This document shows, piece by piece, positions 4,970-53,782 of a DNA stretch of 64,000 nucleotides. This DNA comes from Paludibacteraceae bacterium (lineage in GTDB: Bacteria > Bacteroidota > Bacteroidia > Bacteroidales > Paludibacteraceae). Position 1 is the stretch's first letter. Each line of letters starts with the position of its first letter. The stretch lies in NCBI GenBank assembly GCA_045601825.1, contig JAZSAI010000033.1, positions 57,946 to 121,945 of the forward strand. The letters run 5' to 3'. Made by a program: the position numbers and the translations under genes. The notes below the pieces were generated by a model. It was not told the DNA's origin. It saw nothing but the letters and a program-made list of their open reading frames with translations, and ran no database searches.

Positions 4970-6037
4970 ATGAAAAAACTTCTGTTACTATTCGCTGTTG
5001 TGTCGCTCATAGCGTGTAACCCTCCCCAAGACACGTATCCTGATCCTGTAGTAGGCAGTTATGCTTATGGTGCTGATTGTTCTTGGATTAGTGAGCAAGA
5101 AGCAGATGGAGTGCTCTTCTATGATTCCCTTGGTATGGTCAAAAATGGCATGCATGTAATGCGTGATGCAGGTATGAATTCTGTACGCTTTCGTGTATGG
5201 GTAAACCATTCTACTGGGTGGAGCAACAAAGAGGATGTCATTCGTAATGCTCGTCGTGCGGACTCACTCAAACTGCGCGTAATGATAGATTTCCATTATT
5301 CCGACTTCTTCGCAGACCCTAGCCGTCAGAATATTCCTATTGCGTGGGCAGACTATGACCTTGAGCAAATGAAGCAAGCAGTAGCCAACCATACTACCGA
5401 TCTACTATCAGCACTCAAAGCAGAGGGCGTCAGCCCTGAATGGATTCAAGTGGGCAATGAGACGCGCAGTGGTATGCTCTGGCCAATGGGACGTTTCCAA
5501 GATGAGAACGGCGAGATAGAAGGTGGGTGGAGCCGTTATGCACAACTCACCACCGCTGGCTATGACGCATGTAAAGCAGTATTCCCAAATGCCCAAGTGA
5601 TTGTACATATTGATAATGCATATTTGGATAATAATTGGTTTTATCGCAATCTGTTGCAACATGGAGGTAAGTTTGATATGATAGGTCTTAGCCACTACCC
5701 AATGATGAAGCAATGGTCAGGCAAAGACTGGCAGGAGATGAATCAATTGGCGGCACAAAACATCGTTAATTTGCATAACGAGTTTCAATGCCCTGTGATG
5801 GTGGTGGAAATAGGTACCTATGCCAATGATTCTAACTCCGTGGATGTTATAACCGATTTCCGCCAACGTGTGGACACTATGGAGTATATGAAAGGAATCT
5901 TCTATTGGGAACCACAAGTCTATGGAGGTTGGCGCCCACAAGAATATATCCCATTAGGGTGGGGAGCATACCATATGGGAGCTTTCACATCAAACGGACA
6001 ACCTAATGAAGCCCTCAAAAACCTCTGGAAAAGATAA
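4970..6037 (+). CDS. GH53 arabinogalactan endo-beta-1,4-galactanase (lipoprotein)
   Basis: Lipoprotein signal ...VVSLIAC. GH53-type motifs are GADCSWISEQEADGVLFYD, NSVRFRVWVNH, IQVGNETRSGMLWP (acid/base Glu) and VMVVEIGT (nucleophile Glu). Confidence 0.88.
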   Translation: MKKLLLLFAVVSLIACNPPQDTYPDPVVGSYAYGADCSWISEQEADGVLFYDSLGMVKNGMHVMRDAGMNSVRFRVWVNHSTGWSNKEDVIRNARRADSLKLRVMIDFHYSDFFADPSRQNIPIAWADYDLEQMKQAVANHTTDLLSALKAEGVSPEWIQVGNETRSGMLWPMGRFQDENGEIEGGWSRYAQLTTAGYDACKAVFPNAQVIVHIDNAYLDNNWFYRNLLQHGGKFDMIGLSHYPMMKQWSGKDWQEMNQLAAQNIVNLHNEFQCPVMVVEIGTYANDSNSVDVITDFRQRVDTMEYMKGIFYWEPQVYGGWRPQEYIPLGWGAYHMGAFTSNGQPNEALKNLWKR

Positions 6038-6070
6038 TTCAAAATTCATAATTCAAAATTCATCATTCAA
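6036..6070. repeat. Five phased heptamers AATTCAW filling the GH53-stop to GH2-start spacer
   Basis: aattcaa aattcat aattcaa aattcat cattcaa. The TAA stop (6035-37) and ATG (6070-72) sit on the array edges. Confidence 0.9.
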
Positions 6071-12248: not shown

Positions 12249-12342
12249 GCTTACCCCTTGCTTACCCCTTAGTTGCCCCTTACTCGCCCCCTATTTCCAT
12301 TGGAACCTCATTGGAACCTCATTGGAACCTGATTGGAACCTC
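12249..12342. repeat. Continuous 11-nt periodic array (4 x GCTTACCCCTT-like, then 4 x ATTGGAACCTC)
   Basis: Direct reading of the spacer between the 2-hydroxyacid dehydrogenase stop and the pepT start. Confidence 0.9.
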
Positions 12343-12351
12343 ACCGTATGA

Positions 12352-16622: not shown

Positions 16623-16697
16623 CGCTTTAGCCACTTTCGTGAGCGTAGCGAACCAATAACGCGAAGCCAATAACGTCGGCAAAGCCGACCAATAACG
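16623..16697. repeat. Word + mini-hairpin array (3 x CCAATAACG)
   Basis: CACTTTCGTG, GCGTAGC, GCGAAGC and TCGGCAAAGCCGA interleave with CCAATAACG. It shares the 17-mer CGCTTTAGCCACTTTCG with 10959-10975. Confidence 0.9.
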
Positions 16698-28083: not shown

Positions 28084-29013
28084 GTGAGAAAGATATTTCC
28101 TTACATAGCCATACTAACTGCCATGTTGATATGGGCTGGAGCGGGGATTGCAGTCAAAGAAGCATTGCTCGTATATCCACCGCTAACACTCATAGTCCTG
28201 CGTTTCACACTAGCGGTACTTTTGATGCTTGTTATAGGACTAATCTTTCGGCGTAATGAGATATTGGGATTGCAGTATATAGCTAAGAGGGATATTCCGC
28301 TATTTATATTAGGAGGATTGTTTCAACCGTTTCTGTACTTTATTTTTGAGACATATACCTACCAGAGTTTTGATTCGCCCACGATAGCTGAAGCATTATT
28401 GAGTACGCAACCTGTGCTTGCGCCAATATTTGCATTTGTGTTACTGCGTGAACATATTACGCGCAACAATATCATAGGTATTGTTTTATCCACCATAGGT
28501 ATGTTGATGTTGCTGCTGATGGGGGCGGAAAACTTTACTTTGGGCAATCCATGGGGAATATTACTGGCATTTCTAACCGTCAGTATGTCAGTTAGTTATT
28601 CTGTTGTATTGCGTCGTATACCTAGTCGCTATTCGCCATTATCTATTGTGTTTTATGTGCAGTTAATATCCCTTATCTTGTTCTACATACTTTGGGGAAC
28701 TACTCATCTTTCGCCTCTTACTTCACAACTCTCAACTTTTAATGCTCAACTCTCAACTCTCAATTCACTGCTAGCAGTATTATATTTAGCTGTATTAGCA
28801 TCTGTAGCAGCATTTATATTGTTTTGTTATACGGTACGTAAGATAGGTGTCACGCGCGCGAACGTATTTAATAATATTCGACCCGTATTTACTGCAATAT
28901 TGATGTGGTTGATGTTTGACGAACGACTACCAGTATGGAAGATGATAGGTATAATTGTTATCATTATTGGTTTATTTATTAGCCAAAAGCACGAAAAATA
29001 TAATAATAATTAA
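28084..29013 (+). CDS. DMT-superfamily (EamA-type) transporter
   Basis: GTG start 3 nt after the GH3 stop. About 10 TM segments forming two EamA halves. Contains an in-frame heptamer array (28728-28769). Confidence 0.8.
   Translation: MRKIFPYIAILTAMLIWAGAGIAVKEALLVYPPLTLIVLRFTLAVLLMLVIGLIFRRNEILGLQYIAKRDIPLFILGGLFQPFLYFIFETYTYQSFDSPTIAEALLSTQPVLAPIFAFVLLREHITRNNIIGIVLSTIGMLMLLLMGAENFTLGNPWGILLAFLTVSMSVSYSVVLRRIPSRYSPLSIVFYVQLISLILFYILWGTTHLSPLTSQLSTFNAQLSTLNSLLAVLYLAVLASVAAFILFCYTVRKIGVTRANVFNNIRPVFTAILMWLMFDERLPVWKMIGIIVIIIGLFISQKHEKYNNN
28728..28769. repeat. Six in-frame heptamers (ACTCTCA-like) inside the DMT transporter CDS
   Basis: actctca actttta atgctca actctca actctca attcact, 42 nt, encoding QLSTFNAQLSTLNS. 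Confidence 0.85.
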
Positions 29014-29904: not shown

Positions 29905-31152
29905 ATGAGCAATAATCTCCTTTTTACCGAGCATAAACTCGGTCCTATTACTTTGCGCAACCGCGCCATCCGTAGTGCCGCTTTCGAGAACATGGCATAC
30001 GGCAACAAACCTAGTCAAGATCTCTATAATTATCATACTGCCGTAGCACGCGGTGGTGCAGCGATGACCACGGTGGCATACTGCTCTGTCACTCGTTCGG
30101 GTGTCTCTTTCGACGGTCAACTCTATATCCACGACGAAATCAAGGAAGACCTCAAAAAACTCACCGATGGCATTCATGCTGAGGGAGCAAAAGCAAGTAT
30201 TCAGCTTGGGCACTGCGGTAATATGACCCACTTCTATACTTGCAAATGTATGCCAGTTGGTGCTAGTACAGGTTTCAACCTCTATTCGCCAACTTTGCAT
30301 CGCGCACTGAAGAAAGAAGAAATCAAGGAGATTGTCAAGGCGTTTGGTCATGCGGTGGACTTCTGTCGCGAGTGCGGTTTCGACTGCGTAGAGATTCACG
30401 CGGGTCACGGTTATCTCATTTCGCAATTCCTCTCGCCATATACCAACCATCGTCGCGATGAGTACGGAGGTTCGCTTGAGAATCGTATGCGCTTCATGAA
30501 CGAAGTGATGGCAGAGGTGATGGAGCATGCAGGCGATGATATGGCTGTGGTAGTCAAGACCAATATGTACGATGGCTTCAAGTCTGGTCTCAAAGTAGAG
30601 GAGTGTATCCGTATCGCACAAGAGATTGAGAAACATGGTGTGCATGCGCTCGTACTCACCGCAGGCTTCGTGAGCAAAGCACCTTTCACCGTCATGGGTG
30701 GTGCTATGCCAATCAAAACTTTGGCTCACTACATGAACCCATGGTCATTCTGGTGGTTGCGTCTTGCGCTTCGCTTCGTGGGTCATTTGATGATTCCTAC
30801 TGTGCCTTTCAAAGAGCTCTTCTTCCTCGATACGGCTAAGCAATTCCGCAAAGCACTCAAGATGCCACTTATTTATGTCGGTGGTATCATGGGACGCGAG
30901 AACGCAGAGACAGCTCTGGCTGAGGGCTTTGATTTTGTGCAGATTGGACACGCTTTGGTGCGCGACACTGATTTCGTGAATAAGATGCGTGAGGAGCAAT
31001 ATCACTCTGAGTGCAAACGCTCTAACTATTGCGTAGCGCGTATGTACACCCTCGATATGAAGTGTCACGAGTGTGATAAGGATATCCCTAAATACCTCAA
31101 GAAAGAAGCACTCAAATACGAACAAATGTGGTATCCCTCCTCTAAACACTAA
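29905..31152 (+). CDS. Old-Yellow-Enzyme-family NADH:flavin oxidoreductase with C-terminal Cys cluster
   Basis: LGPITLRNRAIRSAAFE, IQLGHCGN, VEIHAGHGYLISQFLSPYTNHRRDEYGGSLENR (OYE signature). The tail is SECKRSNYCVARMYTLDMKCHEC. It starts 4 nt after the 5-alpha-reductase stop. Confidence 0.88.
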   Translation: MSNNLLFTEHKLGPITLRNRAIRSAAFENMAYGNKPSQDLYNYHTAVARGGAAMTTVAYCSVTRSGVSFDGQLYIHDEIKEDLKKLTDGIHAEGAKASIQLGHCGNMTHFYTCKCMPVGASTGFNLYSPTLHRALKKEEIKEIVKAFGHAVDFCRECGFDCVEIHAGHGYLISQFLSPYTNHRRDEYGGSLENRMRFMNEVMAEVMEHAGDDMAVVVKTNMYDGFKSGLKVEECIRIAQEIEKHGVHALVLTAGFVSKAPFTVMGGAMPIKTLAHYMNPWSFWWLRLALRFVGHLMIPTVPFKELFFLDTAKQFRKALKMPLIYVGGIMGRENAETALAEGFDFVQIGHALVRDTDFVNKMREEQYHSECKRSNYCVARMYTLDMKCHECDKDIPKYLKKEALKYEQMWYPSSKH

Positions 31153-31181
31153 ACACTAAACTCTAAACACTAAACTAGAAT
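31140..31181. repeat. Six phased heptamers CWCTAAA spanning the OYE stop to the SDR start
   Basis: ctctaaa cactaaa cactaaa ctctaaa cactaaa ctagaat. The last OYE codons (..SKH*) and the SDR ATG are inside the array. Confidence 0.9.
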
Positions 31182-32521: not shown

Positions 32522-33571
32522 ATGAAACAACTGCTCACATACCCCGACATAGCCCCCACCGCTTGGCAAGAGTTGGTGGACCGCTCACCCTACGCTACGT
32601 GGTTCCAAACGCCAGAGGCGTATGAATTCTATGCGTCACTCCCAGAGGAGATGACGCCGTTTGCCTATGCGGTAGCAGAAGATTCCTCATCGCCTTATCG
32701 CCTAAAAGCATTATGCGTGGGCTATATTACAAAAGAAAAGAGTGCTCTCAAGCAGTTCTTCACTCGCCGTGCGATTATCATCGGTGGACCATTGCTCGCC
32801 GAAGATGCAACCGCCGAAGAAATAGCCGCCTTGCTTAACGCAGTGAAAAAACTACAGCGAAGCAATCTACAGCCCGCAGGGCGATCTACAGCAAAGCGAT
32901 CTACAGGGCATAGCCCGATTTATGTAGAAACGCGTAATTTTCATAATTACAGTCACTGGAGAGATTCATTTGAAGCTTGTGGGTTCTTATACCAGCCACA
33001 CTATGATATTCATGTGCATTGCAATGCTACGCACACCATGAGTGAGCGACGTCAGCGCGAACTCAAGCGCGCTGTGAAAAACGGTGCGGAGATCGTAGAG
33101 GCATCATTCGAACAGGAGATACGCGATTGGTACCAGATTCTCAGTAAACTTTATCGCCAGAAAGTACGTACTCCGCTATGGAGCGAAGCGTTTTTCCTGC
33201 AATTCTATCGCAGTGGAGTAGGGAAGTACTTACTAGTGAAGTGCCAAGACAAAGTCATAGGCGGAATGATGTGCCCGATACTACAAGGAAAAGCGATATA
33301 CGAATGGTATGTATGTGGATTGGATGAGGAGTATCGCGACTTCTTCCCATCTGTGATGGCTACGCATGCTGCTATCGAATATGCCAAGACCAACGCTCTG
33401 CCTCTCTTTGATTTTATGGGCGCAGGCAAACCCAATGTGCCATACGGCGTGCGTGATTTCAAGATGGAGTTTGGTGGCGAACTGGTGGAGTATGGAAGAT
33501 TTCTTTGTATTCGCAAGCCACTGCTATATAAGATTGGAGAATGGGGAGTGAAATGGTTGAAGAGATGGTGA
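32522..33571 (+). CDS. FemAB-like / GNAT-fold peptidoglycan-bridge-type acyltransferase family protein
   Basis: 349 aa from the ATG at 32522. C-terminal GNAT-like core ...GKAIYEWYVCGLDEEYRDFFPSVMATHAAIEYAKTNALPLFDFMGAG...VRDFKMEFGG. Contains an in-frame word/hairpin array (32852-32916). Confidence 0.55.
   Translation: MKQLLTYPDIAPTAWQELVDRSPYATWFQTPEAYEFYASLPEEMTPFAYAVAEDSSSPYRLKALCVGYITKEKSALKQFFTRRAIIIGGPLLAEDATAEEIAALLNAVKKLQRSNLQPAGRSTAKRSTGHSPIYVETRNFHNYSHWRDSFEACGFLYQPHYDIHVHCNATHTMSERRQRELKRAVKNGAEIVEASFEQEIRDWYQILSKLYRQKVRTPLWSEAFFLQFYRSGVGKYLLVKCQDKVIGGMMCPILQGKAIYEWYVCGLDEEYRDFFPSVMATHAAIEYAKTNALPLFDFMGAGKPNVPYGVRDFKMEFGGELVEYGRFLCIRKPLLYKIGEWGVKWLKRW
32852..32916. repeat. In-frame word + mini-hairpin array (word GATCTACA) inside the FemAB-like CDS
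   Basis: Hairpins GCGAAGC, GCCCGCAGGGC, GCAAAGC and GGGCATAGCCC alternate with (A/G)ATCTACA. Encodes LQRSNLQPAGRSTAKRSTGHSP. Confidence 0.9.
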
Positions 33572-38055: not shown

Positions 38056-38863
38056 TCAAATGTTAGCTGTGCACACCATGCAAGGTACAGATGGTCAGCG
38101 CAATGCGCTATACGAGGTTATGCAACAGGTGGCATTGGCTGGTTTAGCGCGGGGTGGGTTCTTTCAAGAAGCTGCCTTCTATGGTGGCACATGTTTGCGC
38201 CTATTTCATGGACTGAAACGTTATTCGGAAGACATGGACTTCTTGCTGATACAAAAGAACCTTGATTTTCAGTTTGAGAAATATTTTCCTGCCATTATTG
38301 AGGAAGCACGTTTGTTGGGACGAGAGGTGTCTATCACCAAAAAAGACAAACGCAATTTTGGTCGTGTAGAGTCTGCATTTTTGAAGGATACAACAGATGT
38401 GTACAACCTCAGTTTCCAAACAGATCGCTCTGTGCGGATAAAGATAGAAGTTGATACCAATCCTCCAATGTCGTTCACGACCGAACAACGACTGATGGTG
38501 CAACCCTATTCGTTTATGGTACAATGCATGACTTTGCCTTGTCTGTTTGCAGGTAAGATGCATGCATTAGTTTACTGCCAATGGAAAAATCGCGTCAAAG
38601 GGCGCGATTGGTATGACTTTGAGTGGTATGTAAGGTGGAACCATCCTTTGAACTGGGCACATCTGCATGAACGTATTGTGGAGTTCTCGGGAAAGGAATG
38701 TACAAAAAATGAGTTCATAGGACTCCTCAACGAACGATTAGCAACGACCGATATAAATCAAGTGAAAACAGATGTGCTGCCATTTGTGCACCATCCAAGA
38801 GAATTAGATATCTGGTCTAATGATTACTTTTTGCAACTAGCTCAGCGTATTCGCTGGGAATAA
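38039..38863 (+). CDS. abiEii: AbiEii/AbiGii-family nucleotidyltransferase toxin
   Basis: NTase motif FYGGTCLRLFHGLKRYSEDMDF and the downstream ...KIEVDTNPP... pattern of the AbiEii family. Confidence 0.85.
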   Translation: MNDVFSQMLAVHTMQGTDGQRNALYEVMQQVALAGLARGGFFQEAAFYGGTCLRLFHGLKRYSEDMDFLLIQKNLDFQFEKYFPAIIEEARLLGREVSITKKDKRNFGRVESAFLKDTTDVYNLSFQTDRSVRIKIEVDTNPPMSFTTEQRLMVQPYSFMVQCMTLPCLFAGKMHALVYCQWKNRVKGRDWYDFEWYVRWNHPLNWAHLHERIVEFSGKECTKNEFIGLLNERLATTDINQVKTDVLPFVHHPRELDIWSNDYFLQLAQRIRWE

Positions 38864-38949: not shown

Positions 38950-40134
38950 ATGCTCATAACACTTATCGCAGGCGCACGCCCTAACTTCATGAAGATTGCG
39001 CCACTCATCAAAGCCATACAAGCCGCTGAGGCAGCAGGCAAAGATATCCACTATCGTCTAGTACACACTGGACAACACTACGACAAGAATATGTCCGACA
39101 CCTTCTTCGAGGAACTCGGCATACCAATGCCCGACGTGAACCTAGGATGTGGTGGCGGTACACAAGCCGAACAGACAGCCAACATCATGGTGGCTTTTGA
39201 ACGTGATCTAATGGCTAATCCTACCGACTTGGTACTAGTCGTAGGCGACGTGACGAGTACTATGGCGTGCTCCATTGTGGCGAAGAAACTCAATACCAAA
39301 GTATGCCACGTAGAGGCCGGCATACGCAGTTGGGACCTAACTATGCCTGAAGAAATCAATCGTATGGTTACTGACTCATTGGCGGATTATATGTTTACGA
39401 CGAGCGAAGTGGCCAATAAGAACTTAGTTCTTAGTGGCTGCAGTTTAGAAAATGTGCCTAATAGCCTTATTGCCTCATCACCTGATAGCCTTCCCGAAGA
39501 AGGTTACACTTTCGAACGCATCAAACAGCGCGTATGGTATGTAGGCAATGTAATGATTGACACATTATTGGCTAATCACAGTCGCTTCCGCAAACCTGAG
39601 GTATATGATGCGCTCGGACTAGAGGAAAAACAATACATTGTCATGACCATGCACCGACCAGCGAACGTGGACGAAGAGGCGCACCTCAAAGCCCTCATGG
39701 AGCAGATAATTACCAACGTGCACGGATTGCCTATCATCTTTCCAATACATCCTCGTACTGCCAAGATTTTTTACAACCTATGGGGGGATGAAGAGCGACT
39801 AAAACAACTATTTCCTAATCTGCATATTGTAGCTCCAATGGGCTATCTGGAGTTTAACTATCTAGTAGAGCGTGCCAAAGCCGTAGTCACTGACTCGGGC
39901 GGCATCACCGAAGAGACCACCGTGATGGGTGTACCATGTATCACCTTGCGCGACAACACAGAGCGCCCAGAGACTTGCACTGTGGGTACCAACGAACTGA
40001 TAGGTACTGACCCTACAGCCGTGAAACCTGCACTGGATTTATTATTTAGTGGACAATGGAAGAAAGGCGCCATCCCTCCACTCTGGGACGGACACACCGC
40101 TGAACGCATTGTGGAGATATTGCTTAGTGTTTAG
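38950..40134 (+). CDS. wecB: UDP-N-acetylglucosamine 2-epimerase (non-hydrolysing)
   Basis: ARPNFMKIAPL, HTGQHYD, VVGDVTSTMA, HVEAGIRS, DSGGITEETTVMGVPCITLRDNTERPE. Carries a ~26-aa extra segment encoded by an octamer array. Confidence 0.9.
   Translation: MLITLIAGARPNFMKIAPLIKAIQAAEAAGKDIHYRLVHTGQHYDKNMSDTFFEELGIPMPDVNLGCGGGTQAEQTANIMVAFERDLMANPTDLVLVVGDVTSTMACSIVAKKLNTKVCHVEAGIRSWDLTMPEEINRMVTDSLADYMFTTSEVANKNLVLSGCSLENVPNSLIASSPDSLPEEGYTFERIKQRVWYVGNVMIDTLLANHSRFRKPEVYDALGLEEKQYIVMTMHRPANVDEEAHLKALMEQIITNVHGLPIIFPIHPRTAKIFYNLWGDEERLKQLFPNLHIVAPMGYLEFNYLVERAKAVVTDSGGITEETTVMGVPCITLRDNTERPETCTVGTNELIGTDPTAVKPALDLLFSGQWKKGAIPPLWDGHTAERIVEILLSV
39451..39503. repeat. In-frame octamer array plus hairpin inside wecB
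   Basis: aatgtgcc taatagcc ttattgcc tcatcacc tgatagcc, then CCTTC-ccgaa-GAAGG. Encodes NVPNSLIASSPDSLPEEG. Confidence 0.85.
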
Positions 40135-40169
40135 GAACGGCGCATAGCGCCTACTGTTTAGAGTTTAAA
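40127..40169. repeat. Composite CTAAAC-hairpin-CTAAAC spacer element, inverted orientation
   Basis: GTGTTTAG-gaac-GGCGC ATA GCGCC-tac-TGTTTAGAGTTTAA. The wecB stop TAG is inside the first word. Confidence 0.85.
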
Positions 40170-42748: not shown

Positions 42749-42758
42749 AAGCATGGAT

Positions 42759-44060
42759 ATGAAGGCTGAGATTATAACAATAGGCGATGAACTGCTGATT
42801 GGGCAAGTGGTGGATACCAACTCGGCTTGGATGGCAGAGCGACTCAATGAGGCGGGGATTGAACTCTACCAAATAACATCTGTGCACGATGACCGAGAAC
42901 ATATACTGAAGGCATTAGACGAAGCCTTCTCGCGTGCAGATATAGTGCTGACTACGGGAGGACTGGGTCCTACCAAAGATGATATTACCAAGCACGTTAT
43001 GTGTGAGTATTTTGGCACTACACTGGTGGAAGATTCGCGCGTGCGTGAGCATATACACGAGTTGTATAAGGAGCGACCTGATGTACTCAATCGCTTGACT
43101 GCTACCCAATGGCTCGTTCCCGAATCGGCTACCATACTGCCTAATCGGGTAGGTAGTGCACCGATTATGGTGTTTGAGAATGAGGTTAAAGGTGAGAGGT
43201 TAGAGGTTAGAGGCGAGGGACAAAATTCAAAATTCCTCATTGCCATGCCTGGTGTACCCCATGAGATGAAGATTGCGATGAGGGAGCAGGTACTTCCGTT
43301 TATTAGGTTAAAGGTGAGAGGTGAGAGGTTAGAGGTGAGCGGTGAGATTATTCATCGCACAATGATGTTGTATGGCATAGCGGAATCGACATTGGCACTA
43401 AAAATAGAGGAATGGGAGAATGCTCTGCCACAATCAATGCATTTGGCATACTTGCCTAAGGACGGTATTATTCGCCTGCGATTGAGCAGTTATGGCGAAG
43501 CAACAAAAGAAGAAATAGAGCAGCAATTAGCTAATCTAAAGCCACTGATAGCAGACTATCTGATAGCCACCGAAGATTTGCCTTTAGAAACGATATTGGG
43601 CAATCTACTCAAACAACGTCATCAGACTATTGCCACGGCAGAGAGTTGTACAGGTGGACGTTTGGCAGCCGCACTCAATGCGCAGTCGGGCGCATCGGCA
43701 TACTATATGGGTTCGGTAGTGGCATACGACAATACCATCAAGGAGCAAGTGCTGGGCGTGAAGCATGATACATTGGAAAAATACGGTGCCGTCAGCGAAC
43801 AAACTGTGCGTGAGATGGCTGAAGGTGTACGCGCACTAATGAACACGGATTATGCAATTGCCACATCAGGTATAGCTGGCCCTACTGGGGGAACACCAGA
43901 CAAGCCCGTAGGTACAGTATGGATAGCATGGGCTACGCCAAAGGGTACGACGGCGGAGTGTTATCACTTTGGTGTTGCGCGTGAACGCGAACAAATCACC
44001 CAGCGTGCAGTCACTGCTGCTTTGGTAGAACTAATCAAATCACTAAACACTAAACAGTAG
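42759..44060 (+). CDS. cinA: CinA-family competence/damage-inducible protein (MoCF-binding domain + PncC-like nicotinamide-nucleotide amidase domain)
   Basis: MKAEIITIGDELLIGQVVDTNS start (an ATG also occurs at 42753). C-terminal domain ATAESCTGG...IATSGIAGPTGG. Contains two in-frame heptamer arrays. Confidence 0.9.
   Translation: MKAEIITIGDELLIGQVVDTNSAWMAERLNEAGIELYQITSVHDDREHILKALDEAFSRADIVLTTGGLGPTKDDITKHVMCEYFGTTLVEDSRVREHIHELYKERPDVLNRLTATQWLVPESATILPNRVGSAPIMVFENEVKGERLEVRGEGQNSKFLIAMPGVPHEMKIAMREQVLPFIRLKVRGERLEVSGEIIHRTMMLYGIAESTLALKIEEWENALPQSMHLAYLPKDGIIRLRLSSYGEATKEEIEQQLANLKPLIADYLIATEDLPLETILGNLLKQRHQTIATAESCTGGRLAAALNAQSGASAYYMGSVVAYDNTIKEQVLGVKHDTLEKYGAVSEQTVREMAEGVRALMNTDYAIATSGIAGPTGGTPDKPVGTVWIAWATPKGTTAECYHFGVAREREQITQRAVTAALVELIKSLNTKQ
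43182..43237. repeat. In-frame heptamer array 1 inside cinA
   Basis: gaggtta aaggtga gaggtta gaggtta gaggcga gggacaa aattcaa aattcct. Encodes ..EVKGERLEVRGEGQNSKF.. Confidence 0.85.
43304..43345. repeat. In-frame heptamer array 2 inside cinA
   Basis: taggtta aaggtga gaggtga gaggtta gaggtga gcggtga, 42 nt, encoding RLKVRGERLEVSGE. Confidence 0.85.
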
Positions 44061-44087
44061 CCCGCAGGGCGTTCACTAAACACCAAA
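44041..44087. repeat. Composite CTAAAC-hairpin-CTAAAC spacer element (cinA to transporter)
   Basis: CACTAAA CACTAAA CAGTA-GCCC GCA GGGC-GTT CACTAAA CACCAAA, then TATG. The cinA C-terminus SLNTKQ* is encoded by the words. Confidence 0.9.
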
Positions 44088-47111: not shown

Positions 47112-47140
47112 GGTGTAGCAAAAATGCTACACCATTTTCT
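47112..47140 (+). terminator. Hairpin terminator after the NUDIX gene, overlapping the last ALDH codons on the other strand
   Basis: GGTGTAGCA-aaaa-TGCTACACC followed by ATTTTCTTT. Confidence 0.65.
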
Positions 47141-48536
47141 TTATAAGTTTGAATAGCTTATACGGCATGTAGCGGAAAGGCATGTCCACGAAGGTTGGGG
47201 TAGAGACTACCGAACGGCGGTGGGAGAAAGTTATGAAACTCTCCTTGCCATGATATGACCCCATACCCGAATTGCCTACACCGCCAAAGGGCACGTCGTG
47301 ATTCACTATGTGCATAATCACATCATTCACACAAGCACCGCCTGAAGATGTGTGGCGCAATACATAATTGCCATTGGTGCCGAAATAATACAATGCCAAT
47401 GGCTTCTCACGGTCGGTAACAAAAGTGATAACCTCATCTATCTCCTTGAATGTTAGCACGGGGAAGATTGGACCAAAAATCTCTTCTTGCATGACAGGGG
47501 CGTCTGGACTGACATCCGTCAAGATTGTTGGACTCATATAACGTTCGGCGCGGTCATAGTGACCGCCGTAATAGATGGACGCTTCGCTATGGGACGGCGT
47601 TCCGCCTATTGGACGCCCTGACGGGCTATTGGATATAGGCAAGTAACTAATCAAACGCTCCAATGCTTTGTCGCTGACAATACGCACGAAGTGTTTTGCC
47701 TTTTGTGGGTCTTTGGTTAGTAGGTGTTTCCACTCTTTGACAAGCAGTTTGAGGAACTGATCTTTTACGTCCTCATGAATCATCAGATAATCAGGTGCAA
47801 TACATGTCTGTCCTGCGTTGAGTGCTTTGCCCCATGCCACGCGTTTGGCTGCCACTTTAAGGTCGGCGGACTTGTCAATGATACATGGGCTCTTGCCACC
47901 CAACTCAAGCACGACAGGAGTGAGGTGCTTGGAAGCGGCTTCCATAACCATCTTTCCTAGCGAAGGGCTTCCTGTGAAGAATATTAAGTCCCATCGCTCA
48001 GCAAGCAGCATTTGATTAACCTGACGGTTACCCTCAACAATAGCGATATACTCCTCGGGGAAAGTGGCGCGAATCATCTCAGTAAGTACTGCCGATACAT
48101 GTGGTACGTATGGCGAGGGCTTGAGCATGGCTGTACAGCCTGCAGAAATGGCACCTACCAATGGATTGAGCAGCAATTGCACAGGGTAGTTCCATGGCGC
48201 AATGATGAGGGTATTGCCAAGCGGCTCTTTGATAACCTTGCTGGTAGCAGGCATAATCGCAATAGGCGAACATTTGCGTTCGGGGCGCGCCCAACGGCGC
48301 ATATGCTTGAGGTGATTGCGAATCTCACCATAGACAATGCTCAGTTCGGTGAGGTATGCCTCTTCGTAGGACTTGTGAAGGTCGGTCCAAAGGGCTTCAG
48401 CAAGTGGCTTCTCATATTGGTGCATGGCGTCGGATAACTTGCGTAGCATTTGCTTGCGGAAAGGTAGCGCAAGGGTAGCGCCAGAGCGGAAATACGCTTG
48501 TTGCTTGCTGCGAGTCGTTGAAATGTATTCTTTCAT
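47127..48536 (-). CDS. Aldehyde dehydrogenase (ALDH3-like class)
   Basis: FTGSPSLGK, LELGGKSP, CIAPDY (catalytic Cys), EEIFGPI. Has a ~17-aa extra loop encoded by a word/hairpin array. Confidence 0.9.
   Translation of the reverse strand: MKEYISTTRSKQQAYFRSGATLALPFRKQMLRKLSDAMHQYEKPLAEALWTDLHKSYEEAYLTELSIVYGEIRNHLKHMRRWARPERKCSPIAIMPATSKVIKEPLGNTLIIAPWNYPVQLLLNPLVGAISAGCTAMLKPSPYVPHVSAVLTEMIRATFPEEYIAIVEGNRQVNQMLLAERWDLIFFTGSPSLGKMVMEAASKHLTPVVLELGGKSPCIIDKSADLKVAAKRVAWGKALNAGQTCIAPDYLMIHEDVKDQFLKLLVKEWKHLLTKDPQKAKHFVRIVSDKALERLISYLPISNSPSGRPIGGTPSHSEASIYYGGHYDRAERYMSPTILTDVSPDAPVMQEEIFGPIFPVLTFKEIDEVITFVTDREKPLALYYFGTNGNYVLRHTSSGGACVNDVIMHIVNHDVPFGGVGNSGMGSYHGKESFITFSHRRSVVSTPTFVDMPFRYMPYKLFKLIKKMV
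47581..47633. repeat. In-frame word + mini-hairpin array inside the ALDH CDS (minus-strand gene)
   Basis: GCTTCGC, GGCG-TTC-CGCC and GCCC-TGAC-GGGC alternate with TATTGGA/TATGGGA words. Encodes PISNSPSGRPIGGTPSHSEA. Confidence 0.9.
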
Positions 48537-48585: not shown

Positions 48586-48618
48586 GTCGTTGCCGTCTCG
48601 TTGCCGTCTCGTTGCCGT
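48586..48618. repeat. Three tandem 11-mers (C/G)TCGTTGCCGT
   Basis: gtcgttgccgt ctcgttgccgt ctcgttgccgt, followed by the GAAA hairpin at 48622-48637. Confidence 0.9.
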
Positions 48619-48621
48619 GTT

Positions 48622-48637
48622 TGTCTCGAAAGAGACA
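48622..48637 (-). terminator. GAAA-loop hairpin between the SDR stop and the ALDH start
   Basis: TGTCTC-GAAA-GAGACA. There is no clear U-run, so it may be an attenuator or processing hairpin rather than a full terminator. Confidence 0.4.
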
Positions 48638-50362: not shown

Positions 50363-52015
50363 ATGGAATTAAAACATTATTTGGAGTATCTCCAAAACAC
50401 GATTGTCAACAAGTGGAACGTGTTGGCAATGAAGGATTTAGATGGTAATACATCTTATACATATGGCGAAATGGCAAACGAAATTGCTCGTTTGCACACT
50501 ACTTTCCGCGAACTAGGTCTTAAGGAAGGCGATAAGATTGCACTTTGCGGTCGCAACTGCGCTAATTGGGGTTTGACATTCTTAGCTATTGAGACTTACA
50601 AGGCAGTTGCTGTAAGTATTCTTCCAGACTTTACTGCTGAAGGCGTGCATGCGTTGGTTAATCACTCTGAGGCGAAGTTGCTATATGTAGGCCCTAATGT
50701 GTTGAAGAAGGTTGATGCCAACGAAATGCCTGGTCTAATAGCAATGGTATTCATGGATGATTTCTCGTTGAAACATGCTGCATCCGAAGAGGTGGAGAAG
50801 AAGTATGCTGCTGTGGATGAGGTATTTAAGAAAGAATGGCCAGAAGGCGTGAAAGCAGCAGATGTAAAATATCCTACTGATAATATTGATGAGTTGGCAT
50901 TGATCAACTATACATCGGGCTCAACAGGTAATCCTAAGGGCGTGATGATCAGCCATAAGAACTTGAGCGGAAATATCGACTTTGCAGTGAAACGTATTCC
51001 TCACCAAGCAGGTGATAAAGTGCTGAGTATGTTGCCTATCGCGCATATGTTTGGTTTGATGTTTGAGTTCTTGTACCAAGTATGCGATGGCGCAGAGGTG
51101 TATTTCTTGACCAAAGCACCAACTCCATCGGTTTTGATGCGCGCATTTGCACAAGTGCATCCATTTATGATTTTGACTGTACCTTTGGTTATCGAGAAGA
51201 TTATCAAGGGCAAAGTGTTGCCTGTAATCAATAAACCATTGATGAAAGTACTTTGGAAAACGCCAGGTATCAACAAACTATTGCATAAGAAAGTGGGCAA
51301 TACTTTGTTGCAAGCCTTCGGTGGTAAGTTGCGTTTCTTGATTATTGGTGGTGCAGCGCTCAACGAAGAAGTGGAGAAATGTATGCATGATATGCACTTC
51401 ATGTATTGCGTAGGTTATGGTATGACCGAGTGCGCTCCGCTTATCACTTACGAAGATTGGTACAAGTATGTATATCGCTCATGCGGTAAAGGTATTGTGG
51501 GAATGGAAATGCGTATTGACTCGGAAGATCCTGCTACCAAAGAGGGTGAGTTGCAAGTACGCGGCGTAAACGTGATGATGGGTTACTATAAGAACGAAGA
51601 AGCCACTAAAGAAGCGTTTACCGAAGATGGTTGGATGCGTACGGGTGACCTAGGTATTATTGATAAAGAGGGTAACCTCTTCCTTCGCGGTCGTAGCAAG
51701 AATATGTTGCTTGGTCCTAGCGGACAAAATATTTACCCAGAGGAGATTGAGGACAAACTCAATAGTTTGCCATTCGTACTAGAGTCAGTGGTAGTGCAAC
51801 GCGACCAAAAATTGGTAGCATTGGTTTATCCAGACAACTCAGAGGCTGCTAAAAAGCAATTGGCTGGCAAAAATATCTTTGAGGTGATGGATAGCAACCG
51901 TCTGGAGCTCAATAAGCAATTGCCTCAGTATAGCCAAGTGACTGCTATTGAGGTGGTAGAGAAAGAGTTCGAGAAGACTCCAAAGCGTAGTATCAAACGA
52001 TTCATGTATAGTTAA
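50363..52015 (+). CDS. AMP-dependent acyl-CoA synthetase (long-chain-fatty-acid--CoA ligase-like)
   Basis: AMP-binding motif YTSGSTGNPKGVMISH, plus GYGMTE and TGDLG. Confidence 0.88.
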   Translation: MELKHYLEYLQNTIVNKWNVLAMKDLDGNTSYTYGEMANEIARLHTTFRELGLKEGDKIALCGRNCANWGLTFLAIETYKAVAVSILPDFTAEGVHALVNHSEAKLLYVGPNVLKKVDANEMPGLIAMVFMDDFSLKHAASEEVEKKYAAVDEVFKKEWPEGVKAADVKYPTDNIDELALINYTSGSTGNPKGVMISHKNLSGNIDFAVKRIPHQAGDKVLSMLPIAHMFGLMFEFLYQVCDGAEVYFLTKAPTPSVLMRAFAQVHPFMILTVPLVIEKIIKGKVLPVINKPLMKVLWKTPGINKLLHKKVGNTLLQAFGGKLRFLIIGGAALNEEVEKCMHDMHFMYCVGYGMTECAPLITYEDWYKYVYRSCGKGIVGMEMRIDSEDPATKEGELQVRGVNVMMGYYKNEEATKEAFTEDGWMRTGDLGIIDKEGNLFLRGRSKNMLLGPSGQNIYPEEIEDKLNSLPFVLESVVVQRDQKLVALVYPDNSEAAKKQLAGKNIFEVMDSNRLELNKQLPQYSQVTAIEVVEKEFEKTPKRSIKRFMYS

Positions 52016-52019
52016 TCCG

Positions 52020-52082
52020 GGTATCGGTTATCGGATATTGGTTATCGGTTATCGGATATCGGTTATCGAATATCGGATATTG
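52020..52082. repeat. Nine tandem heptamers GWTATYG
   Basis: ggtatcg gttatcg gatattg gttatcg gttatcg gatatcg gttatcg aatatcg gatattg. Starts 5 nt after the acyl-CoA ligase stop. Confidence 0.92.
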
Positions 52083-52109
52083 AAAAGTATTGGAAAATGC
52101 GCATACCGT

Positions 52110-53645: not shown

Positions 53646-53782
53646 TTAGATCGCTGCGCTTGTAGATGGTAGATCGCCACTGAAGTGGCTGTAGATCGGG
53701 CTAAAAGCCCTGTAGATGGTAGAATGCAGCGTTATGCTACACAATCCTACACGTACGCAAAGCGATCGTTTGAGCGCTAGCG
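53646..53782. repeat. Word + mini-hairpin array (word GTAGATCG/GTAGATGG) in the leader of the Na/Pi transporter gene
   Basis: Hairpins GCTGCGC, CCAC-TGAA-GTGG, GGGC-TAAAA-GCCC, CGC-AAA-GCG and the palindrome CGCTAGCG. The words are the reverse complement of the GATCTACA words at 32852-32916. Confidence 0.9.

Follow-up and report, generated by a model that had tools for sequence, protein, structure and literature searches.

A tandem array of REP-like mini-hairpins within an aldehyde dehydrogenase gene of Paludibacteraceae

A stretch of 64,000 nt from a Paludibacteraceae bacterium (contig JAZSAI010000033.1, positions 57,946 to 121,945; hereafter the window) contains a gene for an aldehyde dehydrogenase (ALDH) in which short words alternate with very small G/C hairpins inside the coding sequence. 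How does such sequence come to be translated within a conserved enzyme, and is it particular to this gene? We find that the segment is a short tandem array of mini-hairpin units that resemble repetitive extragenic palindromic (REP) sequences, and that these units are members of a family with copies scattered through this Paludibacteraceae lineage. Units of the family are present between genes and, as in-frame insertions, inside no fewer than 10 other conserved enzymes, and the alleles of close relatives are polymorphic. The initial annotation of the locus had proposed that an intergenic repeat family can invade an enzyme in frame, and in this respect it is borne out.

The host enzyme

The gene and the segment in question are as follows.

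47127..48536, minus strand: ALDH3-class aldehyde dehydrogenase gene that hosts the insert (Pfam, structural relatives, AlphaFold, invariant residues)
47577..47639, minus strand: variable segment encoding the peptide PISNSPSGRPIGGTPSHSEAS (21 aa), in place of the ancestral four residues DNGT, which makes the gene 51 nt (17 aa) longer overall

The open reading frame (ORF) is intact, with 469 codons, and its product matches the Pfam family Aldedh (PF00171, E=3.9e-83) at residues 13-442, so that the domain extends over the full length, in agreement with the annotation of the host as a conserved aldehyde dehydrogenase. The nearest solved structures are Staphylococcus aureus AldH (6k0z, E=3e-122) and human ALDH3A1 (E=3e-115). 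In an alignment of 70 sequences, N116, E211 (in ELGGKSP), C245 (in GQTCIAPDY) and E352 are invariant; by analogy with ALDH3A1, with its catalytic Cys, general-base Glu and oxyanion Asn, we take these residues to be the catalytic set. AlphaFold reached a predicted local distance difference test (pLDDT) score of 41 when given only 48 close homologs, and the prediction was repeated with the deeper 70-sequence alignment, which gave a mean pLDDT of 81 and a predicted template modelling (TM) score of 0.71. The resulting model superposes on ALDH3-class structures, 6k0z and ALDH3A1 among them, with TM scores of 0.84-0.88. Domain, conserved residues and fold thus agree on a predicted full-length ALDH3-class enzyme.

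Between ...RLISYL and IYYGG, 15 residues of the query have no counterpart in 6k0z and 17 have none in human ALDH3A1. Extra length at this place had been annotated as 24 aa where other family members have about 7; the insert is present, and its size is corrected to the net 17 aa given above. In the model, residues 303-316 of the insert are coil with pLDDT below 50, lying between the helix at 289-297 and the strand at 320-323. The insert is thus predicted to be a floppy, disordered loop, presumably at the surface, that the enzyme would tolerate.

Unit structure of the insert

Read directly, the plus strand at 47581-47633 is GCTTCGC-TATGGGA-C-GGCGTTCCGCC-TATTGGA-C-GCCCTGACGGGC-TATTGGA, exactly the alternation of hairpins and words that had been annotated, and the coding (minus) strand across the array reads ...YLPISNSPSGRPIGGTPSHSEASIYYGG. 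In coding-strand order, the insert is built from three DNA units joined head to tail, with lengths of 20, 19 and 15 nt. Each is composed of a TCC(A/C)ATA linker, a G/C mini-hairpin (GCCCGTCAGGGC, GGCGGAACGCC or GCGAAGC) and a G.

47614..47633, minus strand: unit 1, 20 nt, TCCAATA, hairpin GCCCGTCAGGGC (47615-47626) and G (direct reading, hairpin scan)
47595..47613, minus strand: unit 2, 19 nt, TCCAATA, hairpin GGCGGAACGCC (47596-47606) and G (direct reading, hairpin scan)
47580..47594, minus strand: unit 3, 15 nt, TCCCATA, mini-hairpin GCGAAGC (47581-47587) and G (direct reading)

Directly after unit 3 comes the native flank TCCATC (47574-47579), which is itself linker-like. No terminal inverted repeats were found in the array, whose tandem units amount to 54 nt. 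With altered loop bases, unit 1 recurs at L081, L084 and L088, and also at L098 and L116 (here and below, L with a number denotes a locus of our comparison).

Patterns of this kind are in excess in the window as compared with expectations from Markov shuffles. We counted 4 clusters of CCAATA/TATTGG words within 30 nt (0.28 expected), 17 arrays in which a 7-mer occurs three times within 60 nt (0.55 expected), 17 motifs in which an all-G/C hairpin lies between two copies of the same word (3.4 expected) and 29 all-G/C mini-hairpins with a 4-bp stem (13.4 +/- 4.1 expected). The folding of a 65-nt stretch is only moderately better than that of shuffled sequences (z=-2.1 as DNA, -3.5 as RNA), and the evidence therefore lies in the grammar of the units and in comparison across sequences. 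An exact k-mer search found no word of 11 or more nucleotides of the ALDH insert elsewhere in the window, so the link to a family is not demonstrable from the window alone; much closer copies of the units were found in other genomes. A scan of the window with Rfam matched no family.

Variation at the ALDH site

We scanned one genome per species of the Genome Taxonomy Database (GTDB) for the ALDH locus, which returned 80 loci (L001-L080). The five closest (L001-L005, 78-91% identity) come from Paludibacteraceae metagenome-assembled genomes (MAGs) from animal guts, and have extra residues at the site. Distant orthologs have no comparable segment: all of the remaining 75 (L006-L080, 50-72% identity) have a 5-residue turn, e.g., LQDGK, LKDGT or LDNGA. 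Because every ortholog at 72% identity or less carries this turn, the short form is ancestral, and the insert was gained in a narrow clade.

At the protein level we surveyed the 120 closest homologs in a large protein collection (83-96% identity, 452-502 aa). Apart from ragged N-termini, all of their length differences fall at query residues 300-318, where 60 distinct versions of the site occur. Alleles without an array are frequent: the short form Y(M/I/L)DNGTIYHGG is found in 42 of the 120, and the rest add 4 to 50 residues. Alleles that are 93-96% identical to the query over the aligned columns have in some cases its insert, in others the short form or unrelated inserts, e.g., PTSEPLNSEASKPSELLNSEAS and PSTGEADPPSTAKQST. 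In a neighbour-joining tree from which the variable columns were left out, short and long alleles are intermingled, a pattern that implies recombination or repeated change at the site. We considered an assembly artefact and rejected it, because identical alleles recur in many independent samples and sources.

It might seem that the peptide itself is selected, the loop being an adaptive extension such as a new interaction surface and the DNA repeat a by-product. The insert is kept in frame in many lineages, and the peptides encoded in the sense frame are hydrophilic, as this idea would lead one to expect. However, close strains have no insert or have entirely different peptides, units of the family also lie untranslated between genes, and the structural model predicts disorder. 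We therefore regard selection for the peptide as very improbable.

Thirteen ALDH alleles were compared at the DNA level. Their inserts combine at least four linker families in mosaic fashion, with linkers and G/C mini-hairpins in alternation, and this comparison distinguished the following components.

Linker family TCC(A/C)ATAG, with GCGAAGC, GCCCnnnnGGGC or GGCGG(A/T)ACGCC
Linker family TCTGAAC, with GCGAAGC
Linker family ATCTAC(A/C), with GCGAAGC or GGCGAAGCC
Longer hairpins, e.g., CCCCTCCC-TTCA-GGGAGGGG

Two linker families are joined within single alleles at L084 and L085. The units are 15, 19, 20, 21, 24 or 33 nt long, and there are from 1 to more than 6 of them per allele. Near-identical alleles differ by whole units (NSEAS versus NSEAS-NSLKEAS-NSEAS), by the presence or absence of a 33-nt unit encoding EPSELLNSEAS, or by duplication of a 57-nt superunit. 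In ALDH alleles the 20-nt unit is always paired with a following 19-nt unit, the pair measuring 39 nt. Since the 19- and 20-nt units restore the frame only as a pair, what is repeated is a DNA-level element, filtered by selection for an open frame.

Units of such lengths could also make the array a phase-variation (contingency) switch, in which gain or loss of one 19- or 20-nt unit shifts the frame and turns the enzyme off or on. Most unit lengths are indeed not multiples of three, and copy number clearly changes fast. Yet every allele that we recovered is in frame, though the search returned full-length proteins only, and the 20- and 19-nt units are always found together. Moreover, a cytosolic dehydrogenase of housekeeping type is not a typical target of phase variation, and identical units are carried by RecQ, RecJ and NadA. 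A switch is thus an unlikely function for the array.

A separate Bacteroidaceae MAG lineage (L030, L032, L035, L048 and L050; ALDH identity ~62%) has an unrelated insert of ~10 aa, MHISLSDPDADAKASSHEVL..., at a different place, just before EEIFGP.

Dispersal and grammar of the repeat family

A metagenome scan with the 22-nt module TCCMATAGCGAAGCGTCCMATA found 41 loci, 2 of which are ALDH. When orthologous contigs are grouped, these loci represent about 22 independent sites, one of them ALDH, and about 12 of the 22 are inside long ORFs. Hosts in which the module lies in frame, as identified with Pfam, are RecQ, RecJ, NadA, peptidase U32 and a POR/TPP oxidoreductase, together with a CoaE-FolC-like protein, an SDH_alpha protein, a DHH phosphoesterase and a PG_1098-type protein. 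Scans of viral contigs with the modules gave no match, and a search of a protein database with a concatenated repeat peptide yielded 28 candidates sharing words, none of which scored.

The similarity to other loci extends beyond single units. The array in RecJ at L116 is identical to the window insert at 58 of 68 nt, with three hairpins in matching order, and L098 is identical to units 1 and 2 of the window at 40 of 42 nt; multi-unit blocks are therefore common to unrelated loci. An intergenic array at L088 is built from units of the ALDH insert. In addition, a MutS-type gene of L004, identified by its GPNAGGKS motif only, encodes TNSQSPIANN, and the ALDH allele of L003 encodes PNSQSPIANGH.

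These observations bear on the idea that the array is a local minisatellite that arose from native ALDH codons, its likeness to intergenic repeats being a coincidence. The native downstream flank TCCATCTAC is linker-like, and alleles differ in steps of whole units, both of which would fit a local origin. However, the 22-nt module lies at ~21 other independent loci, a 68-nt stretch is held in common with the RecJ array, and from strain to strain the ALDH site is filled by at least four unrelated linker families. The dispersal of the module and the RecJ match already contradict a local origin, which we find scarcely credible.

To define the grammar of the main family, we compared the sequences of 113 segments lying between successive TCC[ACT][AT]TA linkers, of which 47 are distinct. 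The commonest is GCGAAGCG (47 of the 113), followed by GGCGGAACGCCG. Among the distinct segments, 41 of 47 begin with G and 37 of 47 finish with CG. A perfect stem of at least 4 bp is present in 66% of them, as against 7.7% after shuffling. There are at least 10 stems (GCCC, GGGC, GGCG, GCTC, GCTCGC, GCGGC, GCCTC, GGCAC, GCAGC and GGCC), and as each of these many stems is perfectly paired, the arms covary between constant flanks. GCGAAGC, with a stem of 2 bp, is the most frequent hairpin, and GCGTAGC and GCGCAGC are its variants. A unit is a 7-8-nt A/T-rich linker TCC(A/C/T)ATA, then a perfect G/C stem of 2-6 bp that encloses a loop of 3-5 nt, and a trailing G. The lengths of the 47 distinct units, taken modulo three, are distributed as 12/17/18; with lengths that are not multiples of three, the repeat is a DNA-level object, and frame is kept only in the sum of the units.

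Orientation is not random. At 19 of the 22 independent sites (two-sided binomial p ~0.001), GCGAAGC reads in the sense direction of the gene that it lies in or of the nearest gene upstream, and intergenic sites of the module lie 45-220 nt after a co-oriented gene. Antisense frames of the module encode hydrophobic peptides, e.g., IGRFAIG and LDASLLD, and selection at the peptide level may explain part of the strand bias. When all G-N-A hairpins with a stem of at least 3 bp are compared with gene strand, 103 are sense and 97 antisense, a count in which chance hairpins dominate.

Some distant Bacteroidales loci (L056, L073, L030 and L019, from Alistipes, Tidjanibacter and Bacteroidaceae MAGs) are rich in short word arrays of their own. 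A few of these arrays alternate words with hairpins: GGTTAATC with GCCGTTTCACGGC at L030, and CCCCATAAAG with GGGCGGAACGCCC at L019. The phenomenon of word/hairpin arrays may be wider than this genus.

Proposed origin and turnover

We propose that an array was seeded at the ALDH turn in an ancestor of the narrow clade and has since turned over rapidly. Slipped mispairing of one linker with another, favoured by the hairpins between them, would add or remove whole units; slipped mispairing at direct repeats that flank a palindrome is a classical model. Blocks of several units might in addition be copied in from other arrays by way of microhomology between linkers and the native flank TCCATCTAC, for which the linkers TCCAATA, CCATCTACAG and GCATCTGAAC are candidates. 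Selection would remove combinations that break the frame or the fold, so that only sums of units divisible by three survive. The resulting peptide, rich in S, N, P, G and E, would form a disordered surface loop that is tolerated and adds no function. Taken as a whole, i.e., a dispersed REP-like array seeded in the turn, with slippage and block copying, selection for frame and a tolerated loop, we give this explanation a probability of roughly three in four.

It is important to consider several points that weigh against it. Slippage and microhomology-based copying are deduced from comparisons of alleles. The interspersion of short and long alleles would call for recombination or repeated gains, so that seeding may not have been a single event. 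Slippage accounts for copy number and not for the origin of new, perfectly complementary stems; correction of quasi-palindromes by template switching would yield such stems, which is speculation on our part. Finally, pure slippage leaves the 19/22 strand bias unexplained.

Relation to known repeats

Di Nocera et al. (2013; PMC3733652) describe REPs tagged with GTAG or CGTC, a minority of which lie in frame in genes, often genes for replication or repair, where they encode 20-30 aa or more. According to Table 1 of that paper, these REPs are ~20-40 bp long, with stems of 5-13 bp (GTAG) or 8-9 bp (CGTC), and Bacteroidetes are listed among the carriers of CGTC repeats. Our units resemble REPs in being short stem-loop repeats that are dispersed in the genome, with a subset in frame in known proteins. 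As with REPs, most intergenic units lie shortly after a gene and are oriented with its transcription. In the main family ATAG/GTAG and CGTC motifs adjoin the stems, a point taken up below. Unlike REPs, however, which mostly form head-to-head dimers, the units here are arranged head to tail with a constant linker of 7-8 nt. Their stems differ from unit to unit, where REPs have a family consensus stem, and over half of the independent module sites are inside ORFs, where REPs are mostly intergenic. The hairpins, at 7-16 nt, are also smaller than REPs.

Given these similarities, the units might be mini-REP mobile elements, whose hairpin and tag are recognized by a REP-associated tyrosine transposase (RAYT), an IS200-type HUH enzyme or a similar enzyme acting on single-stranded DNA (ssDNA), with slippage being secondary. 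The enzyme would cut and paste the units, and the ALDH array would reflect repeated transposition into a loop that permits it. The main family reads (A/G)TAG, stem-loop, CGTC(C), and these flanks look like the tags by which the two REP superfamilies are defined (PMC3733652). Of the 47 distinct units of the TCCMATA family, 41 read TA+G and 37 read CG+TCC, which gives ATAG...CGTC. Since this G and this C are able to form a base pair, though, it is doubtful that they stand as unpaired tags. The flanks of the CACTAAACA family are GTAG...CGTT. Several other linker families that coexist in the same genomes, namely ATCTACAG, CTGAAC and CCAATAACG, have other flanks. Stems that vary freely between fixed flanks would fit recognition of shape plus tag, and the identical multi-unit blocks at unrelated loci and the strong strand bias also speak for such elements, as does the presence of RecQ, RecJ and MutS-type proteins among the hosts, since intragenic REPs elsewhere are often in DNA repair genes (PMC3733652). 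On the other hand, the stems of 2-6 bp fall below those of known REPs. A tblastn search with two approximate probes over 1.67 Mb found no RAYT/IS200-like gene, but this covers less than 3% of any one genome and is uninformative, and CGTC REPs are themselves without a known transposase (PMC3733652). We consider mobility of this kind possible, at odds well below even.

Palindromic elements of Rickettsia (RPEs) end in CGTC and are inserted in frame in functional protein genes (PMC3733652). The inserts studied here are similar in that they are palindromic, look selfish and occur in frame in functional genes at positions where they are apparently tolerated. Unlike an RPE, which is one long palindrome, they are stacks of 15-33-nt units, and the phylum and lifestyle of the hosts differ. 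RPE-1 is a single element of ~100-150 bp, and RPE inserts are not known to vary between strains, whereas the ALDH inserts are hypervariable.

A further comparison is with the heptamer arrays of MacGregor (2015; PMC4679880), tandem direct repeats of TAACTGA that are found mainly between genes in Beggiatoaceae, Cyanobacteria and five Bacteroidetes, one of them Paludibacter. Like our arrays, these are short, A/T-rich tandem words, mostly intergenic near the ends of genes and sometimes in ORFs, and neighbouring species may have no array in the matching spacer. However, they are built from one fixed heptamer without hairpins, the ORF cases are mostly at the ends of proteins, and PMC4679880 describes no allele-level hypervariability inside conserved enzymes.

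Coding minisatellites, or variable-number tandem repeats, have in common with our arrays the head-to-tail units, a copy number that varies between strains and slipped mispairing as the likely engine. In genes, though, their units are normally multiples of three and of local origin, while here the units may be of any length and come from a dispersed family, and one family can take the place of another at the single ALDH site. At the level of DNA structure, PMC13037366 presents GCGNAGC, as d(GCGNAGC), as a mini-hairpin motif. GCGAAGC is the commonest hairpin in our arrays and many of the larger stems close a G-N-A loop, but that motif is a biophysical one and not a genetic element, and our hairpins are predicted from sequence.

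Three further candidates were rejected. Miniature inverted-repeat transposable elements measure 70-300 bp and have terminal inverted repeats and target-site duplications, whereas the array consists of 54 nt of tandem units with no terminal inverted repeats. CRISPR arrays, which accompany cas genes, have repeats of 24-48 bp and foreign spacers of ~30 bp, in contrast to linkers of 7-8 nt and 'spacers' that are self-complementary hairpins of 7-16 nt. Transposon excision footprints were set aside since the palindromes exclude the ends of the linkers, unlike the P-nucleotides of footprints.

In the open-access literature we found no earlier description of such arrays in Bacteroidales, but only the papers on REPs and heptamer repeats. 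We view the arrays as a case of colonization of proteins by in-frame palindromic repeats, set apart by unit size, tandem fixed linkers, free stems, the coexistence of several linker families and hypervariability.

Other arrays in the window and in neighbouring spacers

Further arrays of the window are listed here.

16641..16697, plus strand: intergenic sister array, CCAATAACG linkers with GCGTAGC, GCGAAGC and GTCGGC-AAA-GCCGAC (word and hairpin scans)
32852..32906, plus strand: in-frame array in a FemAB-like gene (~32522..33571), ATCTACAG linkers with GCGAAGC, GCCCGCAGGGC and GCAAAGC; peptide LQRSNLQPAGRSTAKRSTG
43182-43209 and 43312-43347, plus strand: two in-frame AGGTGAG/AGGTTAG word arrays, without hairpins, in CinA (~42756..44060)
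44041..44082, plus strand: CACTAAACA linkers flanking GTAG-GCCCGCAGGGC-GTTC, which supply the last codons and the stop of CinA
48587..48628, minus strand: three tandem copies of ACGGCAACGAG in the spacer that separates the ALDH start from the SDR gene upstream
53647..53717, minus strand: intergenic ATCTACAG-linker array with GGGCTTTTAGCCC and GCCACTTCAGTGGC

The initial annotation considered the ALDH insert to be the clearest case of invasion and related it to CCAATAACG at 16653. In-frame invasion is supported but not unique to ALDH, given the in-frame arrays in CinA and in the FemAB-like protein of the same window. The array at 16653 has the same grammar, a linker plus a GCGAAGC or GCGTAGC hairpin, but represents a sister linker family without sequence identity to the insert.

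The FemAB-like array is missing from the homologs of L002 and L088, and L004 carries a different insert at the equivalent place. Its ATCTACAG linker family also forms the ALDH allele of L086, and a STAK(Q/R)ST peptide is common to both. The CinA arrays encode EVKGERLEVRGEG and LKVRGERLEVSGE, and the Pfam match of CinA to MoCF_biosynth is stretched, with 180 residues over 143 profile positions. The lengths of these arrays vary among the window, L084 and L086, the first site being 16 aa longer in L084, and their VKGERLEVKG peptide is also found in a FemAB-like protein of L004. A unit related to that at the end of CinA, CTAAACAGTA-GGCGCTATGCGCC-GTTCCTAAAC, lies in opposite orientation at 40129-40161, in the spacer after the gene at 38950..40134.

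The tandem word in the spacer upstream of ALDH depends on the relative. It is ACGGCAACGAG in three copies in the window and L004, CATAGGGACTT in four to six copies in L082-L084 and L086, AACTCTAAAC/AACTCTACAC in L002, and CACTAAACA with GCCCGTAGGGC in L003; L005 and L087 have none. The 11-mer CATTGGAACCT is found in 3-5 copies upstream of ALDH in L001, L081 and L088, and in four tandem copies at 12298-12343 of the window, in the spacer between two minus-strand genes.

Other words occur at several places in the window. At 52016-52085, directly after the stop of an AMP-binding gene (50363..52015), there are about nine 7-mers (TTATCGG/ATATCGG/ATATTGG) without hairpins, an array that resembles the heptamer direct-repeat arrays reported in some Bacteroidetes. 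CTCAACT words at 28726-28763 encode SQLSTFNAQLSTLNS in a predicted EamA-type transporter (28084..29013). Such peptide words are also present in the ALDH allele P0089 (PQLSTLNSQLST) and in CinA of L084 (SQLSTFN). The transporter has the same length as the lone available ortholog (L008), so insertion is not shown in this case. Tandem CTAAACA-type words at 31142-31175 span the stop codon of an Oxidored_FMN gene (29905..31152), and ATTCA(A/T)AA words at 6015-6070 fill the spacer before a GH2 gene at 6070. Single G/C mini-hairpins are located at 38098 (GCGCAATGCGC), 40140 (GCGCATAGCGC) and 42136 (GCGCTTTAGCGC), the latter two in very short spacers right after the stop codons of co-oriented genes.

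Implications

In-frame palindromic repeats in proteins are already known from Rickettsia, some REP-rich Proteobacteria and Verrucomicrobia, and these previously known elements are longer and, as far as is known, fairly stable. The ALDH case differs in that its hairpins are close to the smallest possible, are stacked in tandem and turn over very fast: strains that are ~95% identical elsewhere in the ALDH gene carry unrelated inserts or none. The site thus offers a natural experiment on the amount of random loop sequence that the fold of a conserved enzyme can accommodate, and on the birth and spread of repeats where no transposase is obvious. In practical terms, array sites allow strains of uncultured gut Paludibacteraceae to be told apart sharply. 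They also give rise to spurious differences in length and to low-complexity segments in protein databases, and are a likely cause of assembly breaks.

A more far-reaching hypothesis, which we hold only tentatively, is that the arrays represent an undescribed class of ultra-short, hairpin-defined repeats in Bacteroidales. These would proliferate head to tail and would habitually colonize loops of housekeeping enzymes (in ALDH, RecQ, RecJ, NadA, CinA and others), driven by a specific process that makes or recognizes any perfect G/C stem beside a linker. The driver could be a dedicated enzyme acting on ssDNA, or insertion by templated fold-back, through which new palindromes would be written. The lineage would then possess a genome-wide generator of hypervariable peptide loops.

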